Assembly (NCBI GenBank): GCA_002422025.1
Contig: DISV01000005.1
Location: 203,518 to 267,517 of the forward strand
DNA length: 64,000 bases
Reading direction: 5' to 3'
DNA from: Patescibacteria group bacterium UBA6201
GTDB taxonomy: Bacteria > Patescibacteriota > Minisyncoccia > Phycocordibacterales > UBA918
Of this stretch, positions 4,676-60,985 are shown piece after piece. The notes beneath the pieces were generated by a model. The model searched no databases. It had not been told where the DNA came from and worked only from the letters and a program-made list of their open reading frames with translations. Position numbers and translations under genes: made by a program. Every line of letters starts with the position of its first letter. The first letter of the stretch is position 1.

Positions 4676-6658
4676 ATGTCAAACAACGACACTTTCGAAG
4701 GGGTGATTGCCGTGAGGGGTAAAGGTACAGGTTTCGTTTCTAAGCCAGATCTAGAAGAGGACATTTTGATTGAAACCAGCAATCTAGGTTTTGCTCTGGA
4801 TGGTGATTTGGTGCGTATTTCCCTACTAGAAGCGGTCGAAGGAAAACGTCAGGAAGGTAAGGTGCTAGAAGTAATAGAATCAGCTCACGAGGAATTTATT
4901 GGAGTAGTCAAAGACCGTGCTCCCGAAACTGCTGCCATCAGCAATCACTTTCTTCGTGAGCAAGCAGAAAAGAAAAGTCAGTATTATTTACTGCCAGATA
5001 ATCGGCGTATTCATGTACGTTTCTCGTTAGGGGAAGACGCAAAGGATATGGTGGGAAAAAAGGTAGCGGTGAAAATTGCTAACTGGAATGATGCAACTAT
5101 GGACCCGCAAGGAGTCGTTACTGAGGTCTTGGGACGTGCTGGTGATCATGAAACTGAGATGCAGGCAATTATCCGTGGTGGCGGGTTTTCAGAGAATTTT
5201 CCCGAGGCAGTCTCTCAGGCAGCTAAAGACCTTTACGATAGTCAGGAAAAAATATTTAAAGATGCGCTAGTAGACCCAAAGCGTAAAGATGTCCGCGGTG
5301 TCACCACCTTTACAATTGACCCACTTGACGCCAAGGATTTTGATGATGCTCTTTCATTCCAAAAGCTCCCGAACGGTAACTTCGAGATCGGTGTGCATAT
5401 TGCAGATGTGTCACATTATGTGCAGGAGGGTGAAATAATTGATATGGAAGCGCGCGAGAGAGGTACATCTATTTATCTAGTAGATAGAGTAATTCCGATG
5501 TTGCCCGAGGTGCTTTCTAATGATCTTTGTTCGTTGCGCCCTAACGAAGACCGATTGGCCTTTTCTGCTATCTTTGAAATATCTGGAGAGGCTAAAGTGG
5601 TTGGAGAATGGTACGGGCAGACAGTTATACACTCTGACCGACGTTTTAGTTATGAAGAGGCCCAAGAAATTCTCGATAAAGGCGAAGGAGACTACCTAGG
5701 TGAATTATCTAAGATGATGGAATTGTCTCGTGTCATACGCAAAGAACGTTTTAAGGAAGGAGCCATTGCTTTTGAGCAACCTGAAGTAAGGTTTGAACTT
5801 GATGAGGCCGGTAAGCCGATTCGCGCGTATACAAAACATCGCACCGAGACGATGTTGATGATTGAGGACTACATGCTTCTTGCGAACCAAAGTGTCGCAA
5901 CATATATCTATAAATTATCAAAAGATAAAAAGCGTGACGCCGCTTTCATTTATCGTATTCACGATTTACCAAATCCGGAGAAGATTGAGGATTTAGGTAT
6001 ATTTATTCGAGCACTTGGTTACGATTTTCGCACCGAAAATGGAATAGTAGATGCTAAAGATATTAATAAGCTTCTGAAAGATATTGAGGGTAAACCAGAG
6101 GAAGCCTTAATTAAGACTGCGACTATACGCTCGATGGCTAAGGCAGTTTATTCGACCAAGAACATTGGTCACTTCGGTCTCGCCTTTAAATATTACACAC
6201 ACTTCACTTCCCCAATTCGTCGTTATCCAGACTTGATGGCACATCGGTTACTCCGTCGTCATTTGGACAACTCCCCAATTGCTGGACAAGAAATTGCGCG
6301 CTTTGAAAAGCTTTCTATTCAGTCCTCCGAGCGAGAAATGGAAGCTACCCGTGCAGAGCGAGATAGTATCAAGTACAAGCAAGTAGAGTTTATGGCACCA
6401 AAGGTAGGGCAAGAATTTGATGGAATCATTTCTGGAGTGTCCGATTGGGGTATCTACGTGGAAGAAAAGGAGTCAAAGTCAGAAGGTATGGTACGGCTAT
6501 CCTCAATACGTGGTGACTATTACGAACACCTGGCGGGAGCGTACGCCATAAAGGGTCAAAAAACCGGTAATGTGTATCGACTTGGTGATACTGTCCGCTT
6601 CAAGGTTGTTAAAGCCAACTTGGAAGAGAAACAATTAGATTACGAACTAGTTAAATAA
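4676..6658 (+). CDS. rnr: ribonuclease R / RNB-family 3'-5' exoribonuclease with C-terminal S1 domain
   Basis: FTIDPLDAKDFDDALSF RNB motif, 660 aa, N-terminal cold-shock-like region and C-terminal S1-like region. Confidence 0.85.
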   Translation: MSNNDTFEGVIAVRGKGTGFVSKPDLEEDILIETSNLGFALDGDLVRISLLEAVEGKRQEGKVLEVIESAHEEFIGVVKDRAPETAAISNHFLREQAEKKSQYYLLPDNRRIHVRFSLGEDAKDMVGKKVAVKIANWNDATMDPQGVVTEVLGRAGDHETEMQAIIRGGGFSENFPEAVSQAAKDLYDSQEKIFKDALVDPKRKDVRGVTTFTIDPLDAKDFDDALSFQKLPNGNFEIGVHIADVSHYVQEGEIIDMEARERGTSIYLVDRVIPMLPEVLSNDLCSLRPNEDRLAFSAIFEISGEAKVVGEWYGQTVIHSDRRFSYEEAQEILDKGEGDYLGELSKMMELSRVIRKERFKEGAIAFEQPEVRFELDEAGKPIRAYTKHRTETMLMIEDYMLLANQSVATYIYKLSKDKKRDAAFIYRIHDLPNPEKIEDLGIFIRALGYDFRTENGIVDAKDINKLLKDIEGKPEEALIKTATIRSMAKAVYSTKNIGHFGLAFKYYTHFTSPIRRYPDLMAHRLLRRHLDNSPIAGQEIARFEKLSIQSSEREMEATRAERDSIKYKQVEFMAPKVGQEFDGIISGVSDWGIYVEEKESKSEGMVRLSSIRGDYYEHLAGAYAIKGQKTGNVYRLGDTVRFKVVKANLEEKQLDYELVK

Positions 6659-19200: not shown

Positions 19201-20814
19201 TTATTTCCAGCTCCGATCCGCGTACTTCGCTACCAGCGCTTCGACTTTTTTTCGGTTTTCCACGTCGGTCTCTGACATACCGGCATTCTGCCCGTAAAGG
19301 GAGAAGCCTAGTATGCTACCCTTCTTCACTACAAGGATGTAGGCGATGAAGAGTGCCCAGAGAGTAAGTACAGCGTAGAAGAGGAAGGTTAGGAATGCTC
19401 CAGCCTCAAAACCAGTATATGGAACTTGAGTAAGAGCGATTACTAGAGCCTGATCGCGCTTTTCGTAGACAGCGATGTCATCAACATCGACATCCACCTT
19501 ACAAGTACGACTTCCGCCATCTACACCTTCAGCTTTCATTCTAAATTCAGTAGATTGGTTGATGACCACATCGATTTCACCGTCCAGGTACTTCTTACGC
19601 TTAGAAGAGCTGTAGTCATCAGTGTCGAAAATGGTGTTGCCACGATCGTCCTTGATTACAATCTCGTCCACGTTAGTGGTTTCCCAAGAAAGTGTTACTT
19701 TCTCACCACGCTTTACACGGTCTTTAGAGATATCGAGCTCACAGCGAGGAGTCTTCTCATCTTCCTCTTCCTCAATTTCCACACGCACAGTACAGGTATC
19801 AGAACCATTTGTACCAGTGACAGTAAGGGTAAAAGTAATATCATCGTCTATTTCCACGGTCTTTGATCCATCAGCTGATACGTTACCAATACCCTGGTCG
19901 ATACTAACAGAGGTTGCGTTTGTGGTGTCCCATGTAAGAGTGACATCATCACCCTCTTCAACTACGTCGTCAGACACACGCAGGTAGTTACAAATTGGCG
20001 CTTCTGCAGCACTTTTAGTGATAGTTACAGTACAAGTATCATTACCACCAGCACCGACCGCAGTGAGCGTAAAGGTGACAGTTGAATTAACAAATACATT
20101 TTTAGACCCATCAGCAGAAACGTTTCCTACTCCGTTATCAATTGATACTGAAGTAGCGTTAGTAGTTGTCCAAGTAAGGACTACGTTGCCACCATTGTAT
20201 GGCACGGTATTTCTATCGGCTGTGAATGAGTCACAGGTTGCAGCGGGTGTTTGAGGTGGAGGACTTACTGTTACAGACGCTGTACAGCTAGCATTACCAC
20301 CAGCACCAACCGCAGTTAGAGTAAAAGTTGTATTACTCGTTACTGAAACGTTACTCGATCCACTGGTACCAACTGAACCAATACTAGTGATACTTACTGA
20401 TGTAGCGTTACTGGTGCTCCACGATAGAGTCACAGTACCACCGCCATAAGGTAAGCTAGTAGGGCTTGCAGTCAGGTAGTTACAGGTCGCAGGTGTTGGA
20501 GGAGGAGTGTATGGAGGAGGAGTGTATACAGGAGTGTTGTTATTTCCCCCACTCTCAGTGGTGCTACCACCATTGTTATTCCCTCCCTCACAACAACCGC
20601 TATCTCCACCATAACTACCATCGCTGTTGTTTCCACCACCAGTACTACCACCACTACCACCTCCGTCAAAGGCAGCGGCCTTATCAGCTGAAGTACTCAA
20701 TGAATCAACTGAGCTACCAATTTGAGGTAGTTGCGGCAGAACCACGAACATCATCAACGACAACGTTACAATAGCTGAAGCTCCGTAGATTGATATTTTA
20801 ATACTATTGGTCAT
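19201..20814 (-). CDS. surface protein with N-terminal signal/anchor, G/S/N-rich linker, PPxYTPPP stretch and 4 tandem Cys-containing Ig-like repeats. The C-terminus has a VPYTG motif followed by a TM segment and a KK tail.
   Basis: Repeats CNYLTASP...TLSWSTSNATSVSI...TFTLTAVGAGGNASCT recur four times. C-terminus is LTQVPYTGFEAG+hydrophobic+KKGS. Confidence 0.7.
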   Translation of the reverse strand: MTNSIKISIYGASAIVTLSLMMFVVLPQLPQIGSSVDSLSTSADKAAAFDGGGSGGSTGGGNNSDGSYGGDSGCCEGGNNNGGSTTESGGNNNTPVYTPPPYTPPPTPATCNYLTASPTSLPYGGGTVTLSWSTSNATSVSITSIGSVGTSGSSNVSVTSNTTFTLTAVGAGGNASCTASVTVSPPPQTPAATCDSFTADRNTVPYNGGNVVLTWTTTNATSVSIDNGVGNVSADGSKNVFVNSTVTFTLTAVGAGGNDTCTVTITKSAAEAPICNYLRVSDDVVEEGDDVTLTWDTTNATSVSIDQGIGNVSADGSKTVEIDDDITFTLTVTGTNGSDTCTVRVEIEEEEDEKTPRCELDISKDRVKRGEKVTLSWETTNVDEIVIKDDRGNTIFDTDDYSSSKRKKYLDGEIDVVINQSTEFRMKAEGVDGGSRTCKVDVDVDDIAVYEKRDQALVIALTQVPYTGFEAGAFLTFLFYAVLTLWALFIAYILVVKKGSILGFSLYGQNAGMSETDVENRKKVEALVAKYADRSWK

Positions 20815-20955
20815 ATTTTTTGAATAAATATTTTATAAAGTTTTGTAACTACCGGATCATCCCGGATATTGAGGTTTAATCATTTAAGCTCCAATATCCA
20901 AGATGATTAGAAATGCTGTGGGGAAGACATAAATGTCTTCCCCACAGGTTCTGAA

Positions 20956-21246
20956 TCATCTGCAACCCCATTCCCTTTTGGATTGTGCGAGCGAGCGTTT
21001 GTCGACCGGGCCGAAGTATGTCGTGCATTGTGCCCAGTCCACAATCGTTTCGAGGCGGTATTCGCAACAGTCAGTCCTGCGCGTGCCCTTCATTTCGCCG
21101 TTCATGTACGAGGCCCTGCAACCGCCCATGTTTCGGTCGCTCTTCGCGCTCCAGGTCGCGCACTGCGACCGGGAAGCCGCTGTAGCGATAGTGGCGTTGC
21201 TGATGCTACCGAGAACGAGTAGGCAGAGTGCGAGTGTTTTGATCAT
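20956..21246 (-). CDS. small secreted Cys-rich protein (96 aa, signal peptide, 6 Cys in mature part)
   Basis: MIKTLALCLLVLGSISNATIATAAS signal. SD aggagaag 6 nt upstream. Confidence 0.55.
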   Translation of the reverse strand: MIKTLALCLLVLGSISNATIATAASRSQCATWSAKSDRNMGGCRASYMNGEMKGTRRTDCCEYRLETIVDWAQCTTYFGPVDKRSLAQSKREWGCR

Positions 21247-21267
21247 AATCTTCTCCTGTCTCCTGTT

Positions 21268-21675
21268 TCAGTACATCGTGTAGGTTTTTCCGGACACCGT
21301 AACTGGGGGTGTCCAGATGACGCGATTCACGCACGAGGCGAAAACCGCCACCTGTTCGCCAGGCCGCCTCGACATCGTTATGCAGCGCTTGGTGACGGTT
21401 GGAAGAGGGGTGCTCTTCCAGGTTCCTTTGACGATGACCGGCTCCCACCAGCGCGTGCGCTGGCCTTTGTAGTAGCCGACGTCGAGCTGGTCCCAGTAGC
21501 CGTGACATACGGTTACCTTAATTTTGTTGGGAGTATGGTCGGTACCCTTGTAGGTTCGACCGTCGGTCGAGCGATTGCACTCGATGTCATTTGTGCGACA
21601 GGCATATGCCTTGCTGCAACCTACTGACATATAGAGTGCCATCACTGCGATGATAGCAAGAAGAATAGAACGCAT
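21268..21675 (-). CDS. small secreted/lipo- Cys-rich protein (135 aa)
   Basis: MRSILLAIIAVMALYMSVGC signal with a possible lipobox. Perfect SD aggagg 4 nt upstream. 6 Cys. Confidence 0.55.
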   Translation of the reverse strand: MRSILLAIIAVMALYMSVGCSKAYACRTNDIECNRSTDGRTYKGTDHTPNKIKVTVCHGYWDQLDVGYYKGQRTRWWEPVIVKGTWKSTPLPTVTKRCITMSRRPGEQVAVFASCVNRVIWTPPVTVSGKTYTMY

Positions 21676-21801
21676 GGCGTCCTCCTAAGGTTGTTGGGTT
21701 GACTGATTTTTCGAAGAACGAAAAGAGCAGAGAGGGGTCTTGGTTAATATAACTCCTAACCCCAGATTCTCTACAGAATAGCATATTAGAAGTGAAATGT
21801 C

Positions 21802-22554: not shown

Positions 22555-22583
22555 TATAATACACTAAAACACAATTTTGTCAA
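22555..22583 (-). promoter_or_regulatory. sigma70-like promoter TTGACA-N16-TATTAT for the sortase gene
   Basis: The minus strand reads TTGACAaaattgtgttttagtgTATTAT ~25 nt upstream of ATG. Confidence 0.45.
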
Positions 22584-22621
22584 CTTGATTCACAGTCAAT
22601 ATAACAATCGAACCATTGAGT

Positions 22622-22955
22622 GGGGGTTGACCCCCACACCAGTTTTGTTATTGAAGACTTGCTTTTATCCTACGCTTAAGCTGAGCTAGGGCGTTACCGT
22701 CCTTTTTTAAGGACCACTCCCTGTGTCTTGCGTCATTTTCTAGCAAAAAAGCTTCGTAGTACCGTAGAGTAAAGGGTTCCCTCCCTTTCGTAGCAGGACT
22801 CTGACCTTGATTATGTTCAGCAAGTCTTCGTCTCAAGTCAGTAGTTGAACCTAGGTATAGTTGATTATCCCTTTGACTTTTAAGGATATATACATAAAAC
22901 ATCATTATATTATGATCTGATTCGTGACTATAACAAAACTGGTGTGGGGGTTGAC
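22622..22955. mobile_element. GIY-YIG gene cassette bracketed by 26-bp inverted repeats (IR-L 22626-22651 GTTGACCCCCACACCAGTTTTGTTAT; IR-R 22930-22955 ATAACAAAACTGGTGTGGGGGTTGAC)
   Basis: The IRs match 25/26. IR-L overlaps the stop codon. IR-R supplies an outward TTGACA -35 for the 23010 gene and an inward TTGTTA -35 for the GIY-YIG gene. Confidence 0.55.
22648..22905 (-). CDS. GIY-YIG nuclease domain protein (UPF0213/YhbQ-like, 85 aa)
   Basis: FYVYILKSQRDNQLYLGSTTDLRRRLAEHNQG is a GIY-YIG motif. Confidence 0.8.
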   Translation of the reverse strand: MMFYVYILKSQRDNQLYLGSTTDLRRRLAEHNQGQSPATKGREPFTLRYYEAFLLENDARHREWSLKKDGNALAQLKRRIKASLQ

Positions 22956-23009
22956 AAATTGATAAAAATAGGTATCATTGTGACAACTTCAGCAGATTAA
23001 CTTAACACT

Positions 23010-23759: not shown

Positions 23760-23778
23760 ATAAAAATAAAAGTTAAAC

Positions 23779-23812
23779 AAAAGGCGGCGGGGCAAGACCC
23801 CGCCGCCTTTTG
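23779..23812. terminator. bidirectional terminator aaaaggcggcggggcaagaccccgccgcctttt
   Basis: GC stem between the convergent 23010 gene and gyrB. Confidence 0.75.
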
Positions 23813-23834
23813 TTTGTTGCGTCCCACTCTAAGT

Positions 23835-60767: not shown

Positions 60768-60825
60768 CGGGTGTGAGTTTAGCAAATACTTAGTAAAACG
60801 TCAACCCCTACACCAGTTTTGTCGT
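60768..60825 (-). promoter_or_regulatory. solo copy of the 26-bp repeat (60800-60825) providing the -35 of a TTGACG-N17-TAAACT promoter for the infA/ribosomal operon
   Basis: The minus strand reads ggtgtaggggTTGACGttttactaagtatttgcTAAACT 14 nt before the infA ATG. Confidence 0.45.
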
Positions 60826-60985
60826 CGTTATGATTTTACTATTCTTAAGCACCTAGGGTCTTTTTGCTTATGAATTGAGTTTAGAGTTTTACTCTTGGTC
60901 TCTAAACGCAAAATTACGTCAAAATTGGTGTCTTAGTCCAGTCCAGCGCCAGTGTTCTGGCGGGTCAGGATGGACTCGAAGGTAC

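Follow-up and report, generated by a model that had tools for sequence, protein, structure and literature searches.

The 64,000-nucleotide stretch of DNA analysed here, which we call the window, comes from Patescibacteria group bacterium UBA6201 (contig DISV01000005.1). On its minus strand, between a sortase gene and the gene for a 249-aa membrane or surface protein that adjoins gyrB, lies a gene for a very small nuclease of the GIY-YIG type. The gene is bracketed by two inverted repeats, which we call the arms, and arms and gene together are flanked by a short direct repeat. The original prediction, made from the sequence of the window, took this unit for a compact mobile cassette or, alternatively, for an extended promoter motif specific to the lineage. 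We believe the comparisons with other genomes argue for the cassette. The features at the locus are the following.

22648-22902, minus strand: GIY-YIG nuclease gene, 84 aa from the second ATG (22648-22905, 85 aa, from the first ATG at 22905); Pfam PF01541
22630-22651: arm downstream of the nuclease gene, G-rich on the gene strand; includes the TAA stop codon at 22648-22650
22930-22951: arm upstream of the nuclease gene, C-rich on the gene strand; inverted repeat, in the same register in homologues
22620-22631: left copy of the duplicated target, GTGGGGGTTGAC on the plus strand and GTCAACCCCCAC on the gene strand; core hexamer GTTGAC at 22626-22631
22944-22955: right copy of the duplicated target, from direct-repeat family D8 and the empty-site comparison; core hexamer GTTGAC at 22950-22955
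22620-22637, minus strand: hairpin GTGGGGG-TCAA-CCCCCAC in the single-stranded DNA (ssDNA) fold, directly 3' of the stop codon
22909-22936, minus strand: putative own promoter of the nuclease gene, TTGTTA-16-CATAAT, from a consensus scan; weaker than the two host promoters
22951-22978, plus strand: host promoter of the 249-aa membrane/surface protein gene, TTGACA-16-TATCAT; not part of the element
22556-22583, minus strand: host promoter of the sortase gene, TTGACA-16-TATTAT; not part of the element

The arms and the nuclease

The inverted pair is real, as predicted, but its perfect part is 22 nt long and not 26. It consists of ACCCCCACACCAGTTTTGTTAT (22630-22651) and ATAACAAAACTGGTGTGGGGGT (22930-22951), separated by 278 nt. 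The 26-mers originally described differ at two positions, and the outermost GTTGAC has the same orientation on both sides, so it is a direct repeat and not an inverted one. It belongs to a 12-nt direct repeat, GTGGGGGTTGAC, at 22620-22631 and 22944-22955 (family D8). The left arm overlaps the stop codon of the nuclease gene just as had been claimed, with TAA at 22648-22650 inside it. Shuffled versions of the window gave zero matches to the arm repeats. The 64 kb hold three arm copies in total, two at the cassette and one at 60804-60825, and one gene-carrying copy. Folded as ssDNA, this gene-carrying element has its arms paired (z = -6.8). An Rfam scan of the whole window placed no known RNA family over the arms; its sole match was tRNA-Thr. 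A genome-contig collection scanned with the 19-mer ACAAAACTGGTGTRGGGGT gave two matches (Bdellovibrio and a metagenome-assembled genome of Limnocylindrales), and the lone match to the same 19-mer in a metagenome contig is discarded as chance, as it sits within a histidine-kinase gene; the source genome is in neither collection.

The hairpin at 22620-22637 is built from the arm end together with CCCCCAC that was already in the target. It resembles a terminator, which would serve the nuclease gene; in L009, one of the other lineages compared below, the equivalent arrangement is the arm, then CCCCCACACCT, then a T-run. A different structure, a 19-bp perfect-stem T-tailed terminator, stands at 23775-23815 (minus strand, that of gyrB) in the spacer where the 249-aa protein gene and gyrB converge.

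The 85-aa open reading frame reported between the repeats (22648-22905, minus strand) does encode a GIY-YIG protein. It matches Pfam PF01541 over residues 2-72 (E = 2.4e-16, 60 bits against a cut-off of 22.6 bits); a second Pfam match, to T5orf172, is weak. No NCBIfam family comes over its cut-off, the group I intron endonuclease model reaching 23 bits where 56 are needed. The AlphaFold2 model (mean pLDDT 88, elements E-E-H-E-H-H) is confident and shows the beta-beta-alpha-beta-alpha fold of the GIY-YIG catalytic domain, for which Foldseek gives as best matches UPF0213 BH0048 (1zg2), the Slx1 nuclease domain (TM 0.65-0.72, rmsd 2.1-3.3) and I-TevI. A sequence search of the PDB agrees with these structural matches. 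In the window the -10 box of the putative own promoter ends 6 nt before the second ATG, and the nuclease mRNA is probably leaderless.

There are 182 detectable homologues, nearly all of 84 aa, from Patescibacteria (Nomurabacteria, Sungbacteria, Yonathbacteria and the "Parcubacteria group"). Among those listed, identity to the window protein runs from 64 to 78 %, and none is above 78 %. Thirty-five homologues align without gaps at a mean column identity of 78 %, and in these Y4, Y6, Y17, G19, R27, H31 and E63, the GIY, YIG, Arg, His and Glu positions of the fold, are invariant or nearly so. Clustered at 50 %, the family counts 548 clusters at E <= 1e-10. It is not phage-borne, since a scan of a viral-contig collection with the family alignment gave only 3 weak loci. 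A plasmid collection searched with the window protein likewise gave weak matches only (37-46 % identity over residues 2-67). Many relatives in the representative library carry the nuclease domain at the N terminus of proteins of 230-600 aa and are thus fused multi-domain cousins.

Empty sites and the same anatomy elsewhere

By its gyrB the organism is a relative of Candidatus Kaiserbacteria, and the same gene gave the close relatives: L034 (95 %), L032/L033 (94 %; GCA_002773365.1) and L035 (88 %). All of them keep the order gyrB, 245-250-aa protein gene, sortase, and in none of them is there a GIY-YIG gene between the last two. The spacer from protein gene to sortase is 156 bp in L034, 103 bp in L032/L033 and 194 bp in L035, against 477 bp in the window. 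The 12-mer GTCAACCCCCAC is present once in L034, where the cassette is absent, and twice in the window, 324 bp apart; a relative with a clean junction, which the original prediction had asked for, thus exists. With a slash marking the junction, the empty site of L034 aligns as GATTTGTCAACCCCCAC / AGTAATGGTTCGG, and the occupied site of the window, on the gene strand, runs AATTTGTCAACCCCCAC / ACCAGTTTTGTTAT, then the gene, then CTGGTGTGGGG GTCAACCCCCAC / TCAATGGTTCG. The reconstructed empty site reads AATTTGTCAACCCCCACTCAATGG.

Because the L034 alignment shows a single 12-mer, the window holds a 324-bp insertion and a duplicated 12-mer. The insertion is 22632-22955, that is 318 bp plus one copy of the duplicated hexamer, and the nuclease gene is its only open reading frame. 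We favour an insertion in the window lineage because it is the parsimonious choice, with three empty relatives, two of which are without any arm remnant. Neither arms nor homologues were found in the 22-kb stretches of L032, L033 and L035, nor in 21 kb of L041, a relative that is introduced below. The comparison with L034 also indicates that CCCCCAC, the outer part of the upstream arm, was in the target before the insertion. A sharp-ended element with a plain 6-bp target duplication does not describe these sites: the duplication in the window is 12 bp, as the target held CCCCCAC, and the repeat of the L006 element described below reaches 11 bp. The exact boundaries of the element are therefore ambiguous. 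In L034 there is also an arm-like TTGACCCCCTACACCAGT between dnaE and thrS (14669-14698, minus strand), at a place where the window has no counterpart.

All four genomes, that of the window and those of L034, L032 and L035, have kept the two divergent host promoters. This bears on the claim that the right repeat supplies TTGACA for the promoter of the surface-protein gene. A promoter scan does find TTGACA-16-TATCAT at 22951-22978, but the same promoter is conserved in relatives without the cassette. We therefore regard the TTGACA at the right arm as ancestral, with the duplicated core restoring the -35 box. The outward promoters are not supplied by the repeats; their TTGAC is part of the target hexamer that was duplicated, beyond the ends of the arms. 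Arms that overlap a stop codon and abut -35 boxes are easily misread as promoter or terminator motifs, and annotators should be aware of this.

The anatomy recurs in other lineages. DNA was fetched around five homologues (L006, L009, L012, L015 and L022), which with the window gives six lineages. The five are 84-aa genes from other Parcubacteria lineages, with 67-75 % identity to the window protein. Their neighbourhoods are unrelated to that of the window and to each other: tRNA-His and rplS; dockerin/FG-GAP surface proteins; hypothetical proteins; rplJ-rplL; and genes for a major facilitator superfamily protein and RNase J. At all six loci the C-rich arm ends 20-24 nt before the ATG and its complement overlaps the stop codon. 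Copies of the repeat do flank other GIY-YIG genes, then, and do so in the same register in each of the five lineages. The arms there are 20-22 nt long, two of them with one mismatch. Their outer end of 10-11 nt, CCCCCACACC(T/A), is conserved across lineages; the inner half varies, 14-19 of 20 positions being common between lineages. Over 7 elements, the two arms form Watson-Crick pairs at 138 of 140 positions; 11 of 20 positions are variable from element to element, and a change in one arm is nearly always matched on its partner.

The hexamers that flank the arms differ from lineage to lineage: GTCAAC in the window (gene strand), GTTGAC in L015, GTTATC in L012, GATAAC in L022, GCCTAC in L006 and TTTTAC/GTTTAC in L009. 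They match on both sides in five of the six lineages, and 5 of 6 letters match in the sixth. A TATAAT-like -10 box stands 6 nt before the ATG in five of six, this being the second ATG (84 aa) in the window and L006. The inner end of the upstream arm and the -10 box are conserved, which fits a leaderless own promoter in five of six lineages. The inner TTGTTA that was put forward as the -35 of a leaderless nuclease gene thus appears sound, with TTGTTA-16-CATAAT recovered by the scan. No transposase gene was found in any fetched neighbourhood.

In two of these lineages a GIY-YIG gene adjoins a tRNA gene. In L006 (5748-6343) the element lies directly against the 3' end of tRNA-His (6271-6343), whose last 4 nt (ACCC) are regenerated by the arm end. 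As a general explanation, mimicry of a tRNA 3' end by the arm end CCCCCACACCA fails, for only the L006 element adjoins a tRNA and no other element does. L006 also has a truncated 50-aa GIY-YIG paralogue head-to-head with the repeat-flanked element. In L022 (891-1203) it is another GIY-YIG paralogue, of 79 aa and 42 % identical to the window protein, that lies directly upstream of a tRNA gene, tRNA-Gln. That paralogue is bracketed by a 13-bp direct repeat, CTAATGGTAGGAC, matching the D-arm region of tRNA-Gln, which suggests a second way in which GIY-YIG genes insert at tRNA genes.

Gene-less copies and abutted ends

Outside the cassette the window has one further arm, near infA. It and its relatives in other contigs are listed here.

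60804-60825: well-kept arm of a gene-less copy, ACCCCTACACCAGTTTTGTCGT, with 1 mismatch over the 18-nt core and 5 over the 26-mer of the original prediction
60917-60938: degenerate partner arm, ACGTCAAAATTGGTGTCTTAGT, complementary to 60804-60825 at 16 of 22 positions
60776-60804, minus strand: ancestral infA promoter, TTGACG-17-TAAACT; its TTGAC is the target core beside the gene-less copy
L015, 8528-8598: gene-less copy with 21-nt perfect arms, middle of 27 nt, direct repeat GCTCA
L022, 4818-4860: gene-less copy with a 17-bp stem, 7-nt loop, direct repeat GTATA
L009, 6300-6435: gene-less copy with imperfect arms, middle of ~90 nt, ~130 bp as a whole, direct repeat GTGTG
L027, 4655-4737; L028, 1-100; L031, 594-700: abutted ends (G-arm, GATAAC, C-arm, promoter, ATG) on three contigs from three samples

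The third repeat had been described as a solo copy forming the -35 of the infA promoter. A copy is indeed there, but it is not alone: its degenerate partner pairs with it in the ssDNA fold (z = -3.75). Nor does it form the -35. The relevant relative, L041, was found through the 429-aa protein next to infA (90 % identical), and its infA promoter is identical, TTGACG-17-TAAACT, without the insertion. From the 429-aa gene to infA is 86 bp in L041 and 221 bp in the window, which has ~135 bp extra. A second relative, L044 (80 %), has unrelated sequence after the 429-aa gene, and its contig ends there. On this comparison 60804-60938 is a decayed gene-less element of ~135 bp, and here too the insertion is at a TTGAC. 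In L041 the sequence adjoining this point is CACTGGTGCAGGG-CTTGAC, which resembles an arm end plus core. The L034 target also resembles an arm end plus core, and the L006 target does so weakly (GGGT-GCCTAC). It seems that the elements insert next to half-sites or to what is left of earlier arms.

The gene-less pairs range from 43 to 135 bp and have arm ends like those of gene-carrying elements. They are not simple deletion derivatives, because their inner arms differ from those of the resident gene-carrying copy. The abutted ends, two arms over one core, could be a tandem dimer, a circle junction or a loop in the assembly graph; a tandem second copy of the gene is possible in L027, L028 and L031.

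At 19201-21700 of the window, which corresponds to 4035-6346 of L001 and L002, two near-identical contigs of this genome differ. A 537-aa open reading frame is intact in the window and L002 and split in three in L001, possibly through strain variation or a frameshift. Long overlapping open reading frames occupy both strands at 20876-21700.

What the cassette is

We believe the segment is a very small mobile cassette belonging to a Parcubacteria/Patescibacteria family, with a nuclease that recognises the arms and movement by way of the abutted-end form, and we would put the probability of this at about 0.68. Its description as a compact mobile-type cassette with terminal inverted repeats, which is where the original prediction pointed, is supported because orthologous sites are empty in three relatives, homologues elsewhere carry the arms, and direct repeats flank them. 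How it moves we infer by analogy, and this includes the action of the nuclease on the arms and the single-stranded stem. The nuclease would recognise the CCCCCACACC end when the arms pair as an ssDNA stem, and would cut at the base of the stem as Ssn nucleases do at hairpin repeats and Slx1 does at branched DNA. The element would leave and re-enter through the abutted-end form (G-arm, 6-bp core, C-arm). Its target would be a 5-6-bp core, which after insertion stands on either side of it, and sites beside sequence resembling an arm end would be preferred. Host enzymes would have to do the joining, because GIY-YIG nucleases only hydrolyse. Host promoters would survive the insertion, as the duplicated core restores the TTGAC of the -35 box; both insertions in this genome are at the TTGAC of a -35 box.

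Several points weigh against this. A deletion between the 12-bp direct repeats could also give the clean empty site in L034, so it is parsimony that decides for an insertion. That the nuclease cuts the arms or prefers ssDNA is conjecture, the evidence being comparative sequence rather than biochemistry or reads. GIY-YIG enzymes cannot rejoin DNA, so the protein by itself is no classical transposase. Movement must be rare, because the 64 kb hold one gene-carrying and one decayed gene-less copy and the position is fixed within populations; each exact protein is found in one context only. The contigs with abutted ends could be tandem duplications or assembly-graph loops and not circles. Targets that already resemble arm ends blur both the boundaries of the element and the true length of the duplication. 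Finally, the inspected sample is six lineages out of 548 clusters at E <= 1e-10.

A stronger version would make the 84-aa nuclease the sole element-encoded function of an autonomous mobile element, cutting at the base of the arm stem, passing through the abutted form and leaving the joining to the host. We are doubtful of it, tempting as it is. The hallmarks of a transposon are present: terminal inverted repeats, flanking direct repeats, and presence or absence at the sortase and infA sites. Near-identical multiple copies, a trait of insertion sequences, are not seen in the window, which has one copy of the gene. The element encodes no transposase of a known class (DDE, DEDD, HUH, serine, tyrosine or Cas1), its sole open reading frame being the GIY-YIG gene. 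To our knowledge the GIY-YIG fold occurs in no known insertion-sequence family, and our literature searches found no bacterial GIY-YIG transposon. If the element were autonomous, the ~0.32-kb cassette would be the smallest self-mobilising DNA element known. GIY-YIG would then join the mobilising enzymes of prokaryotes as a new class, DNA would have a new mode of movement, and elements of this kind would be the ancestors of the Ssn/NTS systems in Neisseria, Wolbachia and others. A nuclease that drives movement would also explain the abundance and scatter of small GIY-YIG genes in the reduced genomes of Patescibacteria.

The rival that deserves the most attention comes from those systems. Ssn proteins are single-domain GIY-YIG nucleases of ~94 aa (CDD cd10448; Chenal et al., Nat Commun 2025, PMC11893778). 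Their substrate is ssDNA, in which they bind a hairpin repeat (NTS/SRM) and cleave on its upstream side; the same repeats flank their own genes (PMC11893778). The window protein could likewise be a domesticated host ssDNA endonuclease, for example one that trims transforming DNA, with the arms and hairpins as its sites and the copies spread and lost by ordinary recombination. The precedent is close in protein size, in the single domain and in the repeat beside the stop codon; the position is fixed within populations; and a mean column identity of 78 % between lineages points to purifying selection, as for a protein with a cellular role. Dependence on DNA uptake is common in Patescibacteria, which also counts in its favour. 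We nevertheless consider it unlikely. The repeats are too few, with three arms in 64 kb and none in 22 kb of each of three relatives, where Ssn hosts have hundreds. The gene comes and goes as a unit with direct repeats at 95 % gyrB identity, its context is unrelated in each lineage, and its closest relatives in the databases include no protein above 78 % identity.

Others might see the nuclease as a passenger in a non-autonomous element moved by an unlinked transposase, for instance a DDE enzyme that makes 5-6-bp duplications. DDE transposons are classically recognised by terminal inverted repeats with target duplications of 5-6 bp, gene-less copies exist, and strand transfer is beyond GIY-YIG nucleases. 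Yet the gene and the arms occur together in six of six lineages and in identical register, the stop codon in one arm and the promoter starting in the other. The fetched neighbourhoods are all without transposase genes, the inner arms of gene-less copies differ from those of the resident copy, and a perfect, covarying complementarity exceeds what a protein-binding terminal repeat needs. We would be surprised if this explanation were the right one.

Compensatory change with perfect complementarity is the usual mark of base pairing, so the arms might instead act in RNA, with a read-through transcript forming a long-range stem around the nuclease mRNA that affects its processing, stability or translation, and with the DNA polymorphism as an incidental matter. 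The downstream arm and the adjacent C-run do make a terminator-like hairpin. The conserved -10 box, however, lies downstream of the upstream arm and 6 nt before the ATG, so that the gene's own transcript would be without that arm. An RNA stem also leaves the direct repeats, empty sites and gene-less copies unexplained, and Rfam is empty here; we find it very improbable. Least of all do we credit an extended promoter or operator motif, as the original prediction had offered, or a promoter switch that inverts between the repeats. At two of the three copies a TTGAC -35 in promoter orientation adjoins the repeat, but the same promoters occur without the motif in relatives, the third copy faces no -35 box, and in other genomes the arms come as inverted pairs, either around the nuclease gene or as hairpins at sites that are not promoters. 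A switch would need a recombinase, and no gene for one is nearby; all contigs of this genome have the one orientation. The RNA stem and the promoter or switch are contradicted by the data, and the Ssn-type and passenger explanations may hold in part.

Comparison with known systems

Several known systems resemble the cassette in one respect or another. The best PDB matches in sequence and structure are UPF0213/YhbQ proteins (BH0048, EF2693) and Slx1, and UPF0213 proteins have the same single-domain size, but sequence identity to UPF0213 is ~36 %. Slx1 is a structure-specific nuclease for branched DNA. We know of no report of inverted repeats flanking UPF0213 genes, and the literature we searched contained none. 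Homing endonuclease genes such as those of I-TevI and T4 Seg also have a GIY-YIG catalytic domain and are small selfish cassettes with presence/absence polymorphism. They differ in having a separate DNA-binding domain (~200-250 aa in total), in lacking terminal inverted repeats and target duplication, and in spreading by double-strand-break repair between homologous alleles. The window protein is the catalytic domain alone and has terminal repeats around it, which sets it apart from homing endonucleases. Integron cassettes were considered for a loose resemblance of the cores GTTGAC, GTTATC and GCCTAC to the GTTRRRY/RYYYAAC of attC, and were rejected: the open reading frame lies between the arms and not beside a complete attC, and gene calling in the neighbourhoods that were fetched gave no integrase.

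The gene-less copies are like miniature inverted-repeat transposable elements such as Correia of Neisseria, being 43-135 bp long with terminal inverted repeats, short direct repeats and intergenic or promoter sites. Those, however, are moved by the DDE transposase of a parent insertion sequence, and here the only linked coding capacity is the GIY-YIG nuclease. REP/REPIN-RAYT and IS200/IS605 come closer. In them too inverted short repeats flank a gene, gene-less hairpin doublets are dispersed, there is usually one copy of the gene per genome, and the enzyme is presumed to act on ssDNA hairpins. RAYT is a Y1 HUH enzyme that rejoins DNA through a covalent intermediate, whereas the enzyme here is a hydrolytic GIY-YIG nuclease in which Pfam shows no HUH domain. 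IS200/IS605 make no target duplication, whereas there is a 5-6-bp direct repeat here, and IS200 is more than twice as long as the element.

Of the known systems Ssn/NTS comes closest, although membership of the window protein among the Ssn proteins is unproven. Both have a single-domain GIY-YIG protein of ~85-95 aa (the window protein, at 84 aa, is thus below the 150 aa of the Ssn size limit) and inverted, short, GC-rich repeats that bracket the gene, one of them at the stop codon. Both have further copies of the repeat elsewhere in the genome, and in both the repeat is conserved over a wide phylogenetic distance and changes with the protein. Comparison with SsnA was made with the 94-aa orthologue of N. 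gonorrhoeae, verified by the 9 NTS copies around its gene, in place of the N. meningitidis protein. It came from two 2.17-Mb Neisseria gonorrhoeae chromosomes that are filed as plasmids in PLSDB (NZ_CP119140.1 and NZ_CP119142.1). The window protein is 38 % identical to it over 69 residues (38 bits, 73 % of SsnA covered), and hhalign gives a probability of 96.7 %. The published definition is a BLASTP match to N. meningitidis SsnA at E <= 1e-10 against the proteome with at least 75 % query cover (PMC11893778). Our E = 4e-10 is a single-pair value that would be orders of magnitude weaker against a proteome, and the window protein stays outside that definition. The family profile is roughly equidistant from both groups, scoring 43.2 and 40.6 bits for Ssn proteins and 41.1 and 31.9 bits for UPF0213 proteins.

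Each Ssn repeat is a hairpin of its own; here the gene is flanked by the two halves of one palindrome (22-nt arms) and lies inside the loop, self-contained hairpins of the same arms occurring as gene-less copies and abutted ends. Around ssnA of N. gonorrhoeae there are 9 NTS copies within 2.3 kb, one of which starts 3 nt after the stop codon. The SRM pattern HGTCWYN(0-2)YYVSBRHN(0-5)WNVSBRGN(0-2)RNCYNB matches 9 times there and 0 times in the whole window. Ssn genomes have hundreds of repeats and this one has few, of unrelated sequence and in a host from the Patescibacteria, a group the Ssn paper does not mention (PMC11893778). Its authors liken the NTS-ssnA-NTS layout to an insertion sequence, to REP/RAYT and to IS200/IS605, and suggest a mobile origin followed by host domestication, with mobility undemonstrated (PMC11893778). 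A mobile origin is thus proposed there (PMC11893778), whereas here there is an insertion polymorphism with direct repeats. The comparative evidence missing from that study is available in a sister family, where the unit is present in the window and cleanly absent at 95 % gyrB identity. Pairs of nuclease and target with the conserved end CCCCCACACC are also on offer for the ssDNA tools that the Ssn authors envisage.

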